Shown here one piece after another: positions 463 through 22,515 of a DNA stretch of 26,103 bases; within the stretch, counting starts at the first letter, position 1, and each line of letters starts with the position of its first letter. This DNA is from a virus (Duplodnaviria; Caudoviricetes), in IMG/VR virus record IMGVR_UViG_3300017754_002221, positions 1 to 26,103 of that record. One strand, written 5' to 3'. The position numbers and the translations under genes were made by a program. The notes under the pieces are model-generated. The model saw nothing but the letters and a program-made list of their open reading frames with translations. It made no database searches and had not been told where the DNA came from.

Positions 463-827
463 GAAAGTTTATTTTTATAGTATTATTGCTATTGATTAGT
501 ATAAGTACTAAAGCGCAAGTTATCTTGCAAAGTTATTCAGCAGCAAGGGCTGAATGGAGTGAATTTTTAGGTGACTGGGTCTGGGGTGAAAGATCACCTT
601 GTACTGTAACATTTAGAGTAACTGAAAATGTAATTGAAGCAGATGATGTAGCTCAATCTACATACTATGTGTACTCAGAATATCTTGTAGAAAAATATAA
701 AAATGCATGGAGAGCAGTAGATGAAGATGGTGAAAACTGCATGGTAGGTATTATTACAGAACCTAGCATGCCTTCCTTTCTTTATGTAATGTATGAAAGT
801 GTTATGTTTAAATACTTTATCAAATGA
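459..827 (+). CDS. Exported hypothetical protein with Sec signal peptide
   Basis: MRKFIFIVLLLLISISTKA|Q has a basic n-region, a hydrophobic core and cleavage before Gln. ATGA overlaps with both neighbours. Confidence 0.75.
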   Translation: MRKFIFIVLLLLISISTKAQVILQSYSAARAEWSEFLGDWVWGERSPCTVTFRVTENVIEADDVAQSTYYVYSEYLVEKYKNAWRAVDEDGENCMVGIITEPSMPSFLYVMYESVMFKYFIK

Positions 828-1231
828 AACTTAAGACTTGTGACATATGTGGTGAAGAAAAACCAATATGGAAGAGTAGTGGAACCGGGGGATTACGGTA
901 TTGCCAATATTGCTGGAGTTGCCACAAAAGCAAAGATAAAGATACACAGAAACCAACAAACTCTGTTATCCCCCGTGTTTCTGCTAAAAGAGCAAAAAAA
1001 GATGCTGAGTACAGCAAGTTAAGAGAAAGATATCTTACAGAGAATTTATTATGTATGATTAAAGTAGGTGGTTGTACACATAATGCAACTGATATACATC
1101 ATACATATGCAGGATCTAATAGAGATGCTTTTTACTTAGTTCAAAGTACTTGGAAAGGAGTATGCCGGAATTGCCATGACTGGATTCATGCTAATCCAGG
1201 TGATGCTAGACTAATGGGATGGTTAAAATAA
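824..1231 (+). CDS. HNH-family nuclease with N-terminal Zn finger
   Basis: N-terminal CxxC...CxxC; C-terminal C-x6-C...DIHH...CRNCHDWIH His-Me finger pattern. Confidence 0.7.
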   Translation: MKLKTCDICGEEKPIWKSSGTGGLRYCQYCWSCHKSKDKDTQKPTNSVIPRVSAKRAKKDAEYSKLRERYLTENLLCMIKVGGCTHNATDIHHTYAGSNRDAFYLVQSTWKGVCRNCHDWIHANPGDARLMGWLK

Positions 1232-1237
1232 TTATTT

Positions 1238-1327
1238 ATGATAAGAGATGATATTCAAGCAGCAGCACTTAAAGCTACTGAAAATGAATTTAGATGTGGG
1301 TTAGCTCTTGCTACAGGTTATTTGTAA
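1238..1327 (+). pseudogene. Stub of the displaced 5' end of the SF2 helicase gene (29 aa)
   Basis: MIRDDIQAAALKATENEFRCGLALATGYL* aligns without gaps to the helicase N-terminus MSREKIQEEALKATEGQHRATIVLATG (15/27 identical). Similarity ends in the middle of Walker A. Confidence 0.85.
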
Positions 1328-1351
1328 ATTTAATAAAATTTACTATCTTTA
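1321..1351 (+). promoter_or_regulatory. Bacteroidota-type promoter for the GIY-YIG gene
   Basis: TTTG(1321-1324)-N19-TATCTTTA(1344-1351), one mismatch to TTTG-N19..21-TAnnTTTG, just upstream of ATG 1356. Confidence 0.5.
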
Positions 1352-1355
1352 CTTT

Positions 1356-2141
1356 ATGAAAATAAGTAAAGGCTTTGGATATAAGAAATCTGGTATTTAT
1401 TGTATCAAAAATATAGTAAATGATAAGTTTTATATTGGGAGCAGTATCCATATTTATTATAGATTAAGGAGGCATAAGTCAGATTTGATAAAAAAAACAC
1501 ATGCAAATCCTATTTTATAAAATGCTTATAATAAATATGGTGCTGACTCTTTTGAAGTAGTAATTTTAGAGGAGTGTTCTAAAGATATTGTATTACAAAG
1601 AGAACAACATTATATTAATACTCTTTTGCCAGAGTATAATATTACAAAAGAAGTTGTAAACAATAGGTTATCACTTGAATCAAGGTTAAAAATATCAAAA
1701 ACACTTAAGGAAAAGATAAAAAAAGGTTTGATCACAAATCCCTTGAATCTTGATAAACAAAAGGAAGTCATTATTTATGATGCTGATTGTAATTGTATTG
1801 ATAAATTTTCTTCACAAAATGCTGCAGGTAGATATTTAGAAAAAATTTATTCTGAATTTTCATTTAAATCTGTTAATGCAATAGTTAATAAAAAATCTAG
1901 GAATAGAAGAGGAAAATATAAAAATCATTTTATTCTTTATCCTAATGAGCTATGCATAAAAGATGTTATTAGATCTGATGCTTTTAAAATTTTATGTATA
2001 GATCTTAATACAAATTCTACTGTAATTTATAATAAAACTAATGATTTAACTAAAGCTGTAGGTTGTTCTCCATCTGCTGTATTAGCAGCTTTAAAAAATG
2101 ACAGATTACTACTAAAAAGATATAAATTAACTAAATTATGA
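1356..2141 (+). pseudogene. GIY-YIG homing endonuclease (I-TevI-like) with one in-frame TAA at 1518-1520
   Basis: GIYCIKN...FYIGSS...R...H; reading through the stop gives HANPIL*NAYNKYG...FEVVILE...REQHYINTLLPEYN. Track ORFs 1308-1520 and 1626-2141 are the same frame. The C-terminal segments resemble NUMOD/HTH DNA-binding modules. Confidence 0.9.
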
Positions 2142-3238
2142 GTAGAGAAAAAATACAAGAGGAAGCTTTAAAAGCTACTGAAGGTCAGCATAGAGCTACA
2201 ATTGTACTTGCTACTGGTGTTGGGAAGACTTTAGTTGGTCTTCTCCACCTTGAGCGGGAGTATTCACCTCTAAAGAATATATTAGTTGTTGCTCCTAAGA
2301 GATCAATTATTGCTGAATGGAGAGTTCAAGCTATTAAGTTTAAGAAGGATAGATTCTTGTCTAATACTACTTTTACAACATACTTAAGCTTGAATAAACA
2401 TGATCCATTAGAGTATGATATTGTTTATCTAGATGAAGCACACAACTTGTTAGATAGTCATAGAGGATTTCTAGAGAACTATCATGGTAAAATTCTTGGT
2501 TTAACTGGTACTCCACCTAAAAGAAGTGATTCTGAAAAAGGGAGAATGGTTAATGAATTTTGTCCAATGGTATATGAGTATGTAACTGATGATGCTGTTG
2601 ATGCTAAAATTCTAAATGATTATAAGATAATTGTTCATGAGTTAAGACTTGGTAATAAAGATAAAAACGTAAAAGTTTCTACTAAAACCGGGGGATTCTA
2701 TACTACTGAACAAGCAAATTATCAATACTGGTGTAACAGACTAGAGACTGCTATGGGAGCTAGCTCTGTACAGATGGCTAGGATCATGAGAATGAAAGCT
2801 CTAATGGCATATCCTAGTAAGGAAAAGTATGCTAAACTTCTATCAGAAAGCATTAAATCAAAATGTATTATATTTGCCAACACACAAGAACAAGCAGATA
2901 GAATATGTCAACACAGTTATCACAGTACTAATAGTGAATCAGAAAGCAATCTAATGGCTTTTAAAAATGGTGACATAACTAAATTATCTTGTGTCCTTCA
3001 GCTTAGTGAGGGGGTGAATATTCCAAATCTTAAACAAGGTATTATACTTCATGCATATGGTAATGAGCGTAAAGCTCAGCAACGTATTGGTAGGCTTCTT
3101 AGATTAAGTCCAGATGAGACAGCTACTGTACATATACTGTGTTATATGGATACTGTAGATGAGAAATGGGTAAAAGATGCTCTTGAAGATTATGATAGCT
3201 CTAAGATAACTTGGAAAGACTTTAATATTAAACTTTAA
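2138..3238 (+). CDS. Superfamily 2 (DEAH, ResIII/UvsW-like) DNA helicase
   Basis: Motif I LATGVGKT, II YLDEAH, III GLTGTP, V LSEGVNIP, VI QRIGRLLR. Confidence 0.92.
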   Translation: MSREKIQEEALKATEGQHRATIVLATGVGKTLVGLLHLEREYSPLKNILVVAPKRSIIAEWRVQAIKFKKDRFLSNTTFTTYLSLNKHDPLEYDIVYLDEAHNLLDSHRGFLENYHGKILGLTGTPPKRSDSEKGRMVNEFCPMVYEYVTDDAVDAKILNDYKIIVHELRLGNKDKNVKVSTKTGGFYTTEQANYQYWCNRLETAMGASSVQMARIMRMKALMAYPSKEKYAKLLSESIKSKCIIFANTQEQADRICQHSYHSTNSESESNLMAFKNGDITKLSCVLQLSEGVNIPNLKQGIILHAYGNERKAQQRIGRLLRLSPDETATVHILCYMDTVDEKWVKDALEDYDSSKITWKDFNIKL

Positions 3239-3735
3239 TGCGTACTGAAAAAAACACAATTATTTTAGTGAGAGCTCTTGTTAAGCTTTCCGGAGCTCTT
3301 TATGACATTGACTGTCTAAAAGAATCAAGTAAGTATAAGTTCCAGATCAAAAAAGATCTTGATACATTTCAACCCTGGTTAGAAGAATATATTAGAGAAC
3401 CTATTACTACTCTTACTAAAGCTGATTCTGAAACACTGATGACTCTTATAAATTTATTTACTAGTTATGAAGAAACTGTCTTTGTAAAGAATGGCTTTAA
3501 TACTTGTGTAAATTTATTTTTAGCAAAATGTCACTCTGCTTTAAATGATTTAAAAGATCTTGATAAGCAACATAGTACATATGTAAATAAGCTATCTGTT
3601 AAACTAGAAAACTTATTAAGTGCTAAGTATTTTAATCAGTATACTGATTATGTAGATCCAGATGGTAAAACCTTTAGTGACATAATTAGATTCATGGATG
3701 ATGAAGGTAAAAGTATAATAATTGGAACATTGTAA
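3238..3735 (+). CDS. Hypothetical protein
   Basis: 165-aa ORF coupled to the helicase by a TAATG overlap; no motif recognised. Confidence 0.7.
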   Translation: MRTEKNTIILVRALVKLSGALYDIDCLKESSKYKFQIKKDLDTFQPWLEEYIREPITTLTKADSETLMTLINLFTSYEETVFVKNGFNTCVNLFLAKCHSALNDLKDLDKQHSTYVNKLSVKLENLLSAKYFNQYTDYVDPDGKTFSDIIRFMDDEGKSIIIGTL

Positions 3736-15235: not shown

Positions 15236-15627
15236 TGATTCTAGAAGTAAATGATTTAGAAAATATTCTGAAGATGTTAAATTCAGAAGATAAAGACAAC
15301 TCATATGTTGCTTTTAAAGCACTTGATTCATATGAGTTCAAAGACACAGATGTTAATAAGTTACTTTACTTATATAAGTTTAGCCCCTATTCTAATCAAC
15401 AATGGAGTGAAAACTGTGAAAAAGCTTATAAAATACTAGAAACTTGTTCGGATTTAAGTAAACCAATTACATATGCTGAAGCATTAAATATAATGGTTAA
15501 TAATAATGCTGAGGAAGATATTCTTAATATGTTTTTAGAAAAGCATACTAAACTTCTAACAGGAACACTAAGAGCTTTAGGGTATCCTGCTGATAAGATT
15601 GAGTTAAGTTTAAAACTTAAGAAATGA
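15235..15627 (+). CDS. Helical hypothetical protein with the shared MxxSEDxDN motif
   Basis: ENILKMLNSEDKDNSYVA near the N-terminus. Confidence 0.75.
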   Translation: MILEVNDLENILKMLNSEDKDNSYVAFKALDSYEFKDTDVNKLLYLYKFSPYSNQQWSENCEKAYKILETCSDLSKPITYAEALNIMVNNNAEEDILNMFLEKHTKLLTGTLRALGYPADKIELSLKLKK

Positions 15628-16937
15628 CAAGAGAAGATCTATTAGGTAAAGCAAGTAAAGACTTAATGTGGAAAGAGCCCTTCTTCGGGTTCTTTCTTAT
15701 TATGTTGAATAAAATTTGGACAAATAGAGTTCCTACTGCTGGTGTAAGTAAGAATGGTATTAATTACCAGTTAGCCATTAATGAAAATTTTTGGTGTGAT
15801 CTTACTGATGACTACAGGATAGGACTCTTGAAACATGAGCTATTGCATATTACAAACTTTCATCTAATGCAATATTTTAATTTTCCTGACAAAAGATTAG
15901 CAAACATTGCTATGGACATGGAAATTAATCAATATATTGAGAAAGGTTATCTTCCTAGTGATGAGATGACTAAAGATGAGTATGATTCAATAGTTGAAAA
16001 TGTAAAAGAAAAAGTAAAGAAAGGATTAGAAGATTGTACTCTAGATGAAAATCAGGCATCTCAACTAATGAAAACTATACCAGTACGTGGTATATTCATT
16101 GAAGACTATCCTGATTTGAATTTAGAGCTTAAAGCAGGTTCTAGATATTACTATGATAAACTCAAGGAAGCAAAAGATAAGAAAGATAAAACTGGTAGCT
16201 CTGGTGATGAAAATTTTGACCAGCTATGTGATCAGCTTGATTCTGGTGATTCTAGTGTTCCTGATCATAGTACTTGGGAAGAGTTTGAAAATCTACCTGA
16301 AGCAGAAAAGAAAATTATCCAACAACAGTTAGATAGAATTCTTTCTGAAGCTGCAGAACAAACTGCCAAAAAACGTGGAACAGTTCCTGGAAATATATCT
16401 GACTATTTAATAACTCTTGATAAACTTGAGAAAGCTAAGTTTAATTGGAGAGCTTATATTAGAAGATTTACAGGAGTCTCTACTAAAATCTTTACTAAAA
16501 AGATCCGGAGAAAAGAGAATAAAAGATATTCTGATAATCCAGGTCTGAAGATTAAAATGAGACAACATATGTTGCTGGCTATAGATACTTCAGGTTCTGT
16601 AAGTAATGATGAGCTTAAAGAGTTTATGAATGAGATTACCCATATAAATAAGTGTGGTGTTGACATCACTATTATTCAATGTGATACAAACATAAAATCT
16701 ATAGCACCTTTTAACCCAAGAGAAGAATTTAAAGTACATGGTAGAGGTGGGACTGAATTTGATCCCGTCCTTGAGTATTATAATGCTAACTTGAAAAAAT
16801 ACACAAGCTTAGTATATTTCACAGATGGAGAATGCTATACAGAAGTAAAGCCAAAAGCTCCAGTTCTGTGGGTGTTATCTGAAAGATCTAGTATGAATGA
16901 AAGCCTTCCAGGCAAAGTGATTAAACTTGAGTTATGA
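15624..16937 (+). CDS. DUF2201-type putative metallopeptidase + vWA domain protein
   Basis: HELLH zinc motif followed by NIAMDMEINQ; C-terminal MIDAS IDTSGS, GRGGT, FTDG. Confidence 0.88.
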   Translation: MTREDLLGKASKDLMWKEPFFGFFLIMLNKIWTNRVPTAGVSKNGINYQLAINENFWCDLTDDYRIGLLKHELLHITNFHLMQYFNFPDKRLANIAMDMEINQYIEKGYLPSDEMTKDEYDSIVENVKEKVKKGLEDCTLDENQASQLMKTIPVRGIFIEDYPDLNLELKAGSRYYYDKLKEAKDKKDKTGSSGDENFDQLCDQLDSGDSSVPDHSTWEEFENLPEAEKKIIQQQLDRILSEAAEQTAKKRGTVPGNISDYLITLDKLEKAKFNWRAYIRRFTGVSTKIFTKKIRRKENKRYSDNPGLKIKMRQHMLLAIDTSGSVSNDELKEFMNEITHINKCGVDITIIQCDTNIKSIAPFNPREEFKVHGRGGTEFDPVLEYYNANLKKYTSLVYFTDGECYTEVKPKAPVLWVLSERSSMNESLPGKVIKLEL

Positions 16938-17119
16938 TGCTTACAGTAGAATATTTAGTAAAGTTTATTACAGAAAAAGTAAAAGAACATCCTGAATTAA
17001 AAGAAGAAATAATGGATTTTTATTCATTATGTCTCAGTGAGATAGAGGATGGAGGTGCTGAATACCATGAAGTTGGTATGTGTATTAATGATATAGAAGA
17101 ATTAATTGAAGAAAAATAA
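16934..17119 (+). CDS. Small acidic helical protein
   Basis: 61-aa ORF between the vWA and AAA+ genes, with ATGA coupling. Confidence 0.65.
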   Translation: MMLTVEYLVKFITEKVKEHPELKEEIMDFYSLCLSEIEDGGAEYHEVGMCINDIEELIEEK

Positions 17120-17124
17120 AAACT

Positions 17125-18297
17125 ATGAGCCAAGTAAAATTAAACATTGATGAATTGAAAGACTTTTTAGGTCACATGATTAAGAATAATCAGCATATCC
17201 AAGCAAATGGTAAAATTCCTGTTGCTGTAAATATTGAAGCTGATGCTGGTGTTGGTAAGACATCATCTATTGGTCAAGTTGCAAAAGAGCTAGGATTAGA
17301 TTTTGTAAAGCTTAATCTAGCTCAGATAGAAGAATTAGGTGACTTAATTGGTTTTCCTGTTAAAGAGTTCTTGGTAAAAAATGCAGAAGGTAAAGAAAGA
17401 TGGATTGTAGAGCATCAGATTGCTGCTGCCCAAAGAGCAGGTTATGGAATTGTAGATAAGAGAATGTCTCACGCTGCTCCAGAATGGATTCAAGGTAAAA
17501 GTGAAGGTGGTATATTGTGTCTTGATGATTACACTAGATCTGAGCCAAGATTTATGCAAGCTACTATGGAGTTAATTGACAGACAAGAATATATCTCTTG
17601 GAGTCTTCCTAAGAACTGGCATATAGTTTTAACTACTAATCCAGACAACGGAGACTATAATGTAACTAGCTTAGATATTGCTCAGAAAACTAGATTTATT
17701 TCTGTTGAAGTAAAGTTTGATGAAAAAGTATGGGCTAAGTGGGCTGAGTCAGTTGGAATTGACGGTAGATGTATAAACTTTCTATTGATGAATCCAGAGA
17801 TAATTACAAGTTCTGTAAACCCTAGAGCAATTACTACTTTCTTTAACTCTATTAGTTCAATAGATAAGTTTGAGAGTGAGTTGCCTTTGATTCAGATGAT
17901 TGGTGAAGGTTCAGTAGGGTCAGAAGTGGCATCACTGTTCTCAATGTTTATCAATAACAACTTGGATAAAATTATTTCTCCTGAAGATATAATGAATAAT
18001 CCTAATGAGGCATATGTTATTGGAGCATTGAATAGTTCTGTAGGGTCAGGTGATAGCTTTAGAGCAGATATCTCTAGTGTAATTGCTACTCGTTTGATAA
18101 ACCACTGTCTTATTCATGCTGAGAAAAGTCCAGTAACTGATCTAATGGTTAATAGACTTACAAAGCTTGTAACAGACTGTAGTTCATTCAGTGATGACTT
18201 GAAATATTACATGGTTAAAGAAATTGTAAACGGTAATAAAGTCAAGTGGTCTAAGCTGATGTTAAACCCGCAGGTAGTCAAGATGACTGTCAAATAA
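17125..18297 (+). CDS. MoxR/CbbQ-like AAA+ ATPase
   Basis: Walker A DAGVGKTS, GDLIGFP, Walker B ILCLDD, LTTNP sensor, LDIAQKTRF Arg finger, NPR; adjacent to a vWA gene. Confidence 0.88.
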   Translation: MSQVKLNIDELKDFLGHMIKNNQHIQANGKIPVAVNIEADAGVGKTSSIGQVAKELGLDFVKLNLAQIEELGDLIGFPVKEFLVKNAEGKERWIVEHQIAAAQRAGYGIVDKRMSHAAPEWIQGKSEGGILCLDDYTRSEPRFMQATMELIDRQEYISWSLPKNWHIVLTTNPDNGDYNVTSLDIAQKTRFISVEVKFDEKVWAKWAESVGIDGRCINFLLMNPEIITSSVNPRAITTFFNSISSIDKFESELPLIQMIGEGSVGSEVASLFSMFINNNLDKIISPEDIMNNPNEAYVIGALNSSVGSGDSFRADISSVIATRLINHCLIHAEKSPVTDLMVNRLTKLVTDCSSFSDDLKYYMVKEIVNGNKVKWSKLMLNPQVVKMTVK

Positions 18298-21906: not shown

Positions 21907-21942
21907 TTTTATAGTCAAAATTTATTATATTTGACTATAAAA
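21907..21942 (+). promoter_or_regulatory. Perfect 13-bp inverted repeat overlapping a TATATTTG promoter element
   Basis: TTTTATAGTCAAA(21907-21919)-10 nt-TTTGACTATAAAA(21930-21942); TATATTTG at 21926-21933; ATG at 21949. Confidence 0.7.
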
Positions 21943-21948
21943 AAGCTT

Positions 21949-22515
21949 ATGGAAACTTTAATATGTACTAAGTGCGGTAATGAAAAATCAATTACTGAGT
22001 TTAGAAGAGACCAACACAATCCTACAGGTTATCATACTCATTGTAGAACATGTTTTAACATATCTCAAAAAGAATACAGAGAGAAAAATAAAGAACATGT
22101 TAATAATTATGCAAAAAATTACTATAAAGAGAATGCTGAAAGGATAAAAGCTATGCGTAAACTCAGAAAAGAAGGTAAACCAACTGTTGAACTTCATTCT
22201 AAAAAATCTTTTGACTCTCACTCTTATAATACAAGAAGCGGTTGGAAAAAAAGAAAAGAATTGTCCTGGAAACAAAGAGGAATGGTTGATATGACATATG
22301 ACTTATATGAACAAATGCTAATAAATCAGAATAATAAATGTGCTATATGTAATATTGAACATTCTGATACTAAAAAGTTACATGTTGATCACTGTCATAA
22401 AACTGGTAAAGTAAGGGGTTTACTTTGTAATAATTGTAATAATGGCATGGGTAAATTAGGAGACTCTATTGAAAGATTAGAGATAGTTATTGATTATTTA
22501 AAACAACATATATGA
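21949..22515 (+). CDS. Endonuclease VII-family (His-Me finger) free-standing endonuclease
   Basis: QNNKCAIC...LHVDHCHKTGKVRGLLCNNCN; N-terminal CxxC...CxxC finger and basic helix. Start reassigned to ATG 21949. Confidence 0.88.
   Translation: METLICTKCGNEKSITEFRRDQHNPTGYHTHCRTCFNISQKEYREKNKEHVNNYAKNYYKENAERIKAMRKLRKEGKPTVELHSKKSFDSHSYNTRSGWKKRKELSWKQRGMVDMTYDLYEQMLINQNNKCAICNIEHSDTKKLHVDHCHKTGKVRGLLCNNCNNGMGKLGDSIERLEIVIDYLKQHI

Follow-up and report, generated by a model that had tools for sequence, protein, structure and literature searches.

According to the accessible portions of the papers cited here and below, mobile endonuclease open reading frames (ORFs) form gene hybrids in Allomyces macrogynus atp6 and in Glomus atp6, atp9, cox2 and nad3 (PMC3630166), C-terminal duplications alone are described in further sources (PMC4019555, PMC6279837), and N-terminal duplications in mitochondrial genes of Tremella fuciformis are put down to intron mobility (PMC8393795). 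The phage T4 Seg GIY-YIG genes are intergenic, with cut sites hundreds to thousands of bases away (PMC2988022, PMC2330249, PMC13565253), and the SegE cut site is placed in uvsW by one paper and in the intergenic region by another. Aeh1 mobE in nrdA and T4 mobA in a topoisomerase gene are genes-in-pieces insertions, and homing by double-strand breaks is known for GIY-YIG enzymes (PMC2988022). Here we analyse the tailed-phage contig IMGVR_UViG_3300017754_002221 from IMG/VR, all 26,103 nt (26 kb) of which are called the window. We are fairly confident that it carries, inside the Walker A motif of a helicase gene, an intron-less 900-bp insert that combines a gene for a GIY-YIG endonuclease with a predicted promoter and foreign helicase codons 1–27, and that likely spreads by homing. 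Through freshwater phages the element likely spreads selfishly from phage to phage, without splicing and without breaking the helicase.

The helicase gene begins twice in the window (all features described here lie on the plus strand). A stub at 1238–1318 and the helicase start at 2138–2218 align without gaps at an offset of 900 bases, with 53 of 81 nt and 15 of 27 amino acids identical. The runner-up ungapped 81-mer in the window, both strands included, has 41 matches, and over 27 residues the pair scores 68 by BLOSUM62 against 19 for the runner-up among the 52,046 six-frame positions of the window. The gap-free homology that an earlier note on this DNA had claimed therefore stands above both chance controls. 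Between the two copies lie 37 nt (1319–1355) and a single GIY-YIG frame (1356–2141, 261 codons) with an I-TevI-like catalytic domain, running from ATG 1356 to a TGA that ends at 2141 and overlaps the helicase ATG as ATGA. The downstream gene encodes a 366-residue superfamily 2 (SF2) helicase (ResIII and Helicase_C in Pfam), whose nearest match in the PDB is XPB/Rad25. The element meets the resident body, which runs from the VGKT of Walker A onward (2219–3238), within helicase motif I (ATG/VGKT, the slash marking the joint). Its limits are 1319–2218 or, equally, 1316–2215, as three letters fit either side. The stub frame ends at a TAA (1325–1327) supplied by the element, which gives an upstream piece of 29 codons. 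Among cultured phages the closest helicases are those of Flavobacterium phages, at 33%, and a Bacteroidetes host is therefore likely; the element itself was found in no cultured phage, where this 33% is the best helicase match.

Empty alleles of the same phage occur in public sequencing data. Contigs of four public runs from four studies (X1, X2, X3 and X6) were aligned to window positions 700–3400. One contig each in X2, X3 and X6, which come from three studies other than the window's own, joins 1315 to 2216, with 80 letters on the stub side and exactly 900 bases skipped. Depth is zero in the bins from 1337 to 2064 in X2 and X3, and X6 has only little, at 1792–1973. The stub part of X3 has four letters unlike the window, and the bodies of the X3 and X6 empty alleles differ from the window at 23 of 1185 nt (2216–3400). 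Removing the 900 bp thus restores Walker A, as the earlier note had proposed. The joints identify the stub as the native start, that is, the recipient phage's original helicase codons 1–27 joined straight to the body, and 2138–2215, missing from the empty alleles, as the part of the element-borne replacement start (2138–2218) that arrived with the element. Contigs of X1, possibly the source sample, cover the element. No 1315/2216 joint is listed for a second set of runs (X1, X7, X10 and X12); an X12 contig starts at 2207 with 15 loose letters equal to window 1292–1306, which fits an empty allele and is too short to bridge. X7 contains near-identical element pieces (1454–1613, 1669–1819 and 2154–2304), which makes this the second study with an occupied allele. 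X1, X7 and X10 also have short contigs that match 2144–2187 with 2–3 differences in 32–35 letters and hint at a donor lineage for the replacement, yet are too short to count. A metagenome scan gave 32 loci, many too short to judge, and two start copies only in the window's own contig (L201).

Upstream of the stub, an HNH-like gene (824–1231; PHROG HNH, E 1.5e-9) is present at both empty and occupied loci and forms a conserved flank outside the element. The earlier note had expected the helicase of empty alleles to begin with a stub-like N-terminus right after this gene. In three of the four runs the helicase does begin with the stub and lacks 2138–2215, but in two of them it does so 1019 bases after the HNH gene. 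These extra bases in X3 and X6 fall between the HNH gene and the helicase start, at window 1232–1236; many IMG/VR relatives have a ParB-like gene between the same two genes.

Direct repeats 900 bp apart could also mean that the 5' end was duplicated in tandem long ago in a single lineage and that later deletion between the repeats produced the empty alleles, a loss that is possible in principle. In all three joined contigs, however, the stub is complete and the crossover falls within the final three bases of the repeat, not inside its longer identical blocks. In the IMG/VR survey and the body tree described below, 75 of 99 contigs are empty, at least 11 changes of occupancy are required and near-identical elements sit on different bodies. 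We regard this origin as very improbable.

IMG/VR was scanned with the helicase and with the nuclease, giving 99 distinct contigs with a readable helicase 5' end, the window included; duplicate fetches of one contig and 5'-truncated loci were left out. The site is empty in 75 contigs (62 with at least 1 kb upstream) and carries the nuclease in 22, while L024 has a stub without the nuclease and L029 a different element. Occupied contigs are over-counted among the 99 because the nuclease served as a query; in the first scan, with the helicase alone, the nuclease was present in 3 of 42 loci. In all 21 nuclease relatives at 54% identity or more, the nuclease overlaps the ATG of this helicase as ATGA, so the coupling that the earlier note saw in the window holds throughout the family, whereas none of 59 weaker GIY-YIG matches lies near this helicase. 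A second viral scan with the nuclease alignment returned the same 21 contigs and no further member. A match in L111/L253 (one contig), from a separate search, was put aside as a probable paralogue. To the extent of these scans, the nuclease family is confined to this helicase site. A stub of 26–27 codons precedes the nuclease in 16 of the 21 relatives, four of the others being contigs that end 25–359 nt upstream of the nuclease and the fifth being L062, which has no stub; it is thus present in 16 of the 17 relatives with enough upstream DNA. By our own grouping by identity, the elements form nine lineages, including that of the window. The shared MSREK-type start that the earlier note had foreseen for element-bearing alleles does not exist: each lineage has its own replacement start, with 57–79% nucleotide identity between lineages (25 pairs listed).

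If the helicase 5' end were a recombination hot spot in its own right, cassettes might bring a spare start and the nuclease would be passive cargo. Between stub and replacement, L024 has nine small ORFs and no nuclease, extra ORFs occur in L025 and L048, and L029 pairs a different nuclease with a stub of 7–8 codons, all of which such an exchange would accommodate. Yet L024 retains 38 nt of an L049-type promoter region at its replacement ATG, 17 of the 18 contigs with a full 26–27-codon stub (window included) carry this nuclease family, and the family is found nowhere else and has kept its catalytic residues. We consider a passive nuclease improbable.

The two copies of the start have different histories. 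Where an empty allele with 86–98% body identity is available, the stub matches it at 81 of 81 nt (L045 with L030), 80 of 81 (L055 with L192, and L056 with L187) or 71 of 81 (L025 with L028), whereas replacement starts match close empty alleles at just 49–65 of 81; for distant lineages, in which no close empty allele was found, the comparison is uninformative. Between L025 and L028, 29 of the first 81 nt differ, every one of them within nt 5–74, while the bodies are 98% identical. Conversely, elements shared between contigs extend from the nuclease into the replacement: identities in nuclease, replacement, body and stub are 99, 100, 90 and 86% for L025 and L045, and 99, 98, 84 and 91% for L055 and L056; for L059 and L062, which allow no stub comparison, they are 94, 99 and 81% in nuclease, replacement and body. 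These comparisons show nuclease and replacement start moving together between helicase bodies, and the earlier note's view of a chimeric helicase with a diverged, foreign 5' end is borne out by this joint movement and by the match of stubs to empty alleles. Occupied rows are scattered over a tree of 79 distinct bodies, built from residue 36 onward without duplicate rows or bodies shorter than 280 residues and with L029 scored as empty: the 18 of them require 12 changes of occupancy, of which branches with good support force 11. The mean for shuffled labels is 16.4, which points to some clustering, and each change may be a gain or a loss.

As a rule the nuclease is intact. Its catalytic domain matches Pfam GIY-YIG (PF01541, E 2.9e-13), the family profile matches the I-TevI catalytic domain (PDB 1mk0, E 4.7e-17), and Tyr15, Tyr26, Gly28, Arg36, Glu83 and Asn95 are invariant in nine of nine aligned relatives and present in the window copy. 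Arg36 and Glu83 align with residues that we take to be Arg27 and Glu75 in I-TevI numbering. A NUMOD1 match at residues 136–162 (E 0.029) falls under Pfam's cut-off, and matches to the nuclease in cultured phages are mostly to the catalytic domain alone. In the window assembly, codon 55 is an in-frame TAA (1518–1520). Position 1518 is, however, a C, giving a Gln codon, in both covering X1 contigs (at all depth) and in X7; Gln55 is invariant in nine of nine aligned relatives, and the frame is open in 21 of 21. The usual state is therefore an open codon, and the window TAA is either a minor variant or an error of assembly; a dead nuclease, which we had considered, was rejected on the X1 and X7 letters at this position. 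The repair of the TAA that the earlier note called for is unnecessary, because an open allele exists in nature. In the first 100 alignment columns (the catalytic region), the ratio of nonsynonymous to synonymous substitution rates is 0.00–0.24 in 11 of 11 pairs; over the remaining columns it is 0.00–0.74, with the synonymous rate saturated for the window/L058 pair. By these ratios the nuclease is under purifying selection.

A self-splicing group I intron joining the stub to the body would spare the helicase in another way, and one register-preserving U...G join is available at 1319/2219. That join, however, would turn Val28 of Walker A into Phe, and only 37 nt of the insert are non-coding. From a separate insertion in L042 (see below) come two 12-nt motifs that resemble a group I core; in 10 elements they are matched with, at best, 3–5 and 2–4 mismatches. 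No Rfam intron family was matched, a control that is weak alone since Rfam also missed the L042 insertion: on window 1000–2500 three chance-level matches appeared, and on six loci the sole match was a transfer RNA (tRNA) in L025, with no group I or II core found. This tRNA-like sequence scores 40 bits in Rfam and was not called by ARAGORN. In addition, the helicase ORF is full length, aligns from residue 1 with the helicases of empty alleles and is not split in two pieces. We give splicing almost no credence; that the insertion does without an intron, as the earlier note held, agrees with the want of any group I or II core.

A predicted element promoter (1321–1351) comprises TTTG at 1321–1324 and TATCTTTA at 1344–1351, 4 nt 5' of the nuclease ATG. 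This two-block motif occurs with the same spacing 5' of the nuclease in 10 of 11 lineage representatives, L062 being without the upstream block, and the strict pattern has a single occurrence in the window. It resembles what we take to be the Bacteroidetes -33/-7 consensus. A sigma-70 scan gave 7 sites against 7.1 expected, none of them 5' of the nuclease, from a model that is uninformative for this host group. The earlier note's claim that only a promoter and a GIY-YIG gene lie between the copies is thus accurate for the 37 nt and one frame, while the promoter is deduced from the conserved motif, the sigma-70 scan being blank. From the ATGA overlap it is plausible that helicase expression depends on the element; this dependence is not absolute, because L024 no longer has the nuclease or the downstream promoter block.

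Several observations, on allele structure here and on the cut site in the next paragraph, weigh against the homing interpretation. L024 has stub, replacement and nine small ORFs but no nuclease. Both copies without an endonuclease is an arrangement that the earlier note held to be incompatible with its reading, and L024 fits it; yet a 38-nt stretch identical to the promoter region of the L049 element is fused to its replacement ATG, and because of this remnant the allele is most readily explained by a later deletion. In L062, which has an intergenic layout, nuclease and replacement are present but the stub is missing. Left junctions vary by lineage, the stub ending at nt 78–82 and several different sequences following; therefore stub-based homology cannot account for every transfer, and, as stub ends, following sequences and cargo all vary, the left junction has been remade more than once. 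Cargo at this junction is present in L025, L048 and L024. In addition, nuclease identity tracks body identity (Spearman 0.72 over all 66 pairs), and movement has therefore been mostly among near relatives. The remade left junctions favour an origin like that of SegE, with non-homologous left ends. On that account, a free-standing nuclease upstream converts the 5' end of the recipient, and the stub is a by-product of non-homologous joining at the left end, as the upstream genes are too variable to pair. The purely intergenic, stub-less nuclease of L062, the range of junctions (nt 78–82), the apparent remnant of an older junction that cargo alleles keep before the promoter and the highly variable gene content upstream would all agree with it, and T4 segE lies between inh and uvsW, with uvsW listed as its target in the accessible Table 1 (PMC2988022). 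The same 37–38-nt spacer between stub and nuclease in divergent lineages (window, L053, L055, L058 and L059) does not; nor does the junction sequence shared by L055 and L056, whose stubs match different empty alleles, which fits a fixed junction and homologous repair. This account departs from our favoured one only in how the left junction forms, and may describe the origin of the element; as the full explanation we judge it unlikely.

The cut site, too, is bracketed solely from recombination tracts. L055 and L056 share an element, and their stubs differ up to nt 66, each matching its own empty allele, so that recipient DNA survives at least to nt 66. Element-specific bases end at nt 74–84, and where one element sits on different bodies, the first body difference comes at nt 87–135; together these tracts would place the break near nt 67–87, at the insertion point. 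A CNNNG cut motif, presumably I-TevI-like, was sought by eye in the helicase codon table and showed no consistent pattern. Ala occupies codon 25 in 10 of 12 distinct replacements versus 6 of 55 empty alleles and 3 of 11 stubs, counts that are not corrected for kinship. No one base distinguishes all replacements from all stubs, and the window's own stub also has Ala at codon 25. Gly to Ala at codon 25, considered as a single resistance base, is therefore no general rule, as Ala is also found in those 3 of 11 stubs, including that of the window. Lastly, at nt 54 and 56 the differences between the L055 and L056 replacements are identical to those between the two stubs, a pattern that goes beyond simple repair and could reflect patch conversion or selection for fit to the body.

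Weighing these points, we favour homing with replacement of the gene start. In a co-infection, the nuclease would cut the empty allele at or beside codons 23–29. The right end would pair with the donor's Walker A and body, the left end would pair with the donor's stub or join with little homology, and the element would be copied in. The recipient's own first 26–27 codons would become a new dead stub, and its body would be fused in frame to the start brought by the element. The left junction would escape re-cutting through loss of the downstream half of the site, and the right junction through the difference between replacement and recipient at about 20–40% of the first 75–84 bases. The helicase would then be translated through ATGA coupling to the nuclease. 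Later decay, through deletion of the nuclease, loss of the stub or capture of cargo at the left junction, would yield the variant alleles, and L062 and L024 look like stages of one such life cycle.

Further elements lie at or near the same site. In L024 (2005–3952), in L025 (1666–1827) and upstream in L046–L048, small ORFs, and with them the tRNA-like sequence of L025, end in a shared 11-nt repeat, of which the L024 insert has seven copies in a cassette-array-like arrangement. L029 (1968–3402) carries a second element at the same helicase, comprising a 7–8-codon stub, another GIY-YIG gene (about 30–35% identical) and a 193-residue ORF; its helicase differs from that of the empty L028 mainly at nt 5–13. 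In L249 (2939–4291), a stub of 18 codons is followed by a GIY-YIG gene and then by a gene whose start resembles the stub and which has an ATGA overlap. We take this last gene to be thyX-like and read L249 as carrying an element of the start-replacement kind in a gene other than the helicase. At helicase motif VI, L042 (4303–5398) has an insertion of 1.1 kb that contains a GIY-YIG-like ORF and two motifs that we assume to be group I core-like; it is probably a true intron in the same helicase gene, although Rfam at its gathering score missed it. Beside the HNH gene, further endonuclease-like ORFs were recognized by eye (L057 956–1702, L062 1301–2161, L045 358–1338), which suggests that the region upstream of the helicase is a hot spot for endonuclease-like genes.

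Elsewhere in the window, a VWA/metallopeptidase-like gene neighbours a MoxR-type AAA ATPase-like gene (15624–18297; both judged by eye), and an endonuclease VII-like gene (21931–22515) overlaps, as ATGA, the start of a gene that by eye resembles a DNA polymerase. A promoter-like motif precedes the endonuclease VII-like gene, which is possibly another free-standing homing gene; a stub was looked for there and none was found.

More tentatively, and with somewhat less than even confidence, we propose that such start-swap homing adds to introns and inteins a third general strategy by which a homing endonuclease can reside harmlessly in an essential phage gene: the nuclease cuts its own insertion point in conserved codons near the gene start, swaps the N-terminus at each round and gains left-junction cargo such as small ORFs and the tRNA-like sequence. 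If this is true, at least three independent elements are represented here (helicase codon 26–27, helicase codon 7–8 and codon 18 of the thyX-like gene), and the process would act as a gene drive, reshuffling N-termini and moving genes throughout an entire phage family. In the present case, matched empty and occupied alleles from nature document how a selfish nuclease can come to lie in the most conserved codons of a phage replication gene without intron or intein. The mechanism can be tested directly in vitro, since the empty site is precise, the natural enzyme is intact and nine lineages occur on many helicase backgrounds. Chimeric N-termini from such elements also mislead annotation and gene trees.

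How, then, does the element compare with the systems named at the outset? The fungal mitochondrial hybrids share with it an endonuclease gene inserted in a conserved gene together with a foreign copy of a gene end, and there, as here, the displaced native end matches element-free relatives whereas the inserted end does not, according to the accessible text (PMC3630166). The fungal elements replace the 3' end, with the nuclease after it, while the phage element replaces the 5' end, with the nuclease before it. Only the latter brings a predicted promoter, couples its stop to the host start and has a phage host. It thus works like the fungal end-replacing elements and is not filed as one of them, because it replaces a 5' end, and does so in a phage gene. 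The Tremella case, as far as its available description goes, likewise involves partial foreign replacement giving an N-terminal duplication, but in a fungal organelle and with an intron, of which there is none here.

Within phages, T4 SegE and uvsW offer, in the accessible accounts, a GIY-YIG gene without intron or intein beside its target gene that co-converts neighbouring sequence. The uvsW gene encodes an SF2 helicase, and UvsW is not among the PDB matches of the window helicase at E 1e-5. L062 shares the plain intergenic layout of the T4 Seg genes. Unlike them, the phage element lies inside the target reading frame, has an intron-like precise empty site and leaves a stub; the insertion follows helicase codon 26–27 in 16 of 17 assessable relatives and in the window, and is intergenic only in L062. 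Like mobE and mobA, it is a free-standing endonuclease gene in a functionally critical part of an essential phage gene, with no splicing. In the hosts of mobE and mobA, as described in the available text, both halves are expressed and reassemble, whereas the helicase gene studied here is complete downstream, and its upstream piece of 29 codons is redundant. At the sequence level, the nuclease is a separate frame with its own start and stop, outside any intron or intein found. A literature search whose coverage is incomplete and excludes supplements found no published phage endonuclease that both leaves behind a 5' stub and provides a replacement start. In sum, the element works like an end-replacing homing element that falls outside the intron, split-gene and strictly intergenic Seg classes, and it bridges intron-less homing of the Seg type and fungal gene-end replacement. 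The principle has precedent in fungal end replacement and in T4 SegE; the phage 5' form, with its matched alleles, appears to be the new part.

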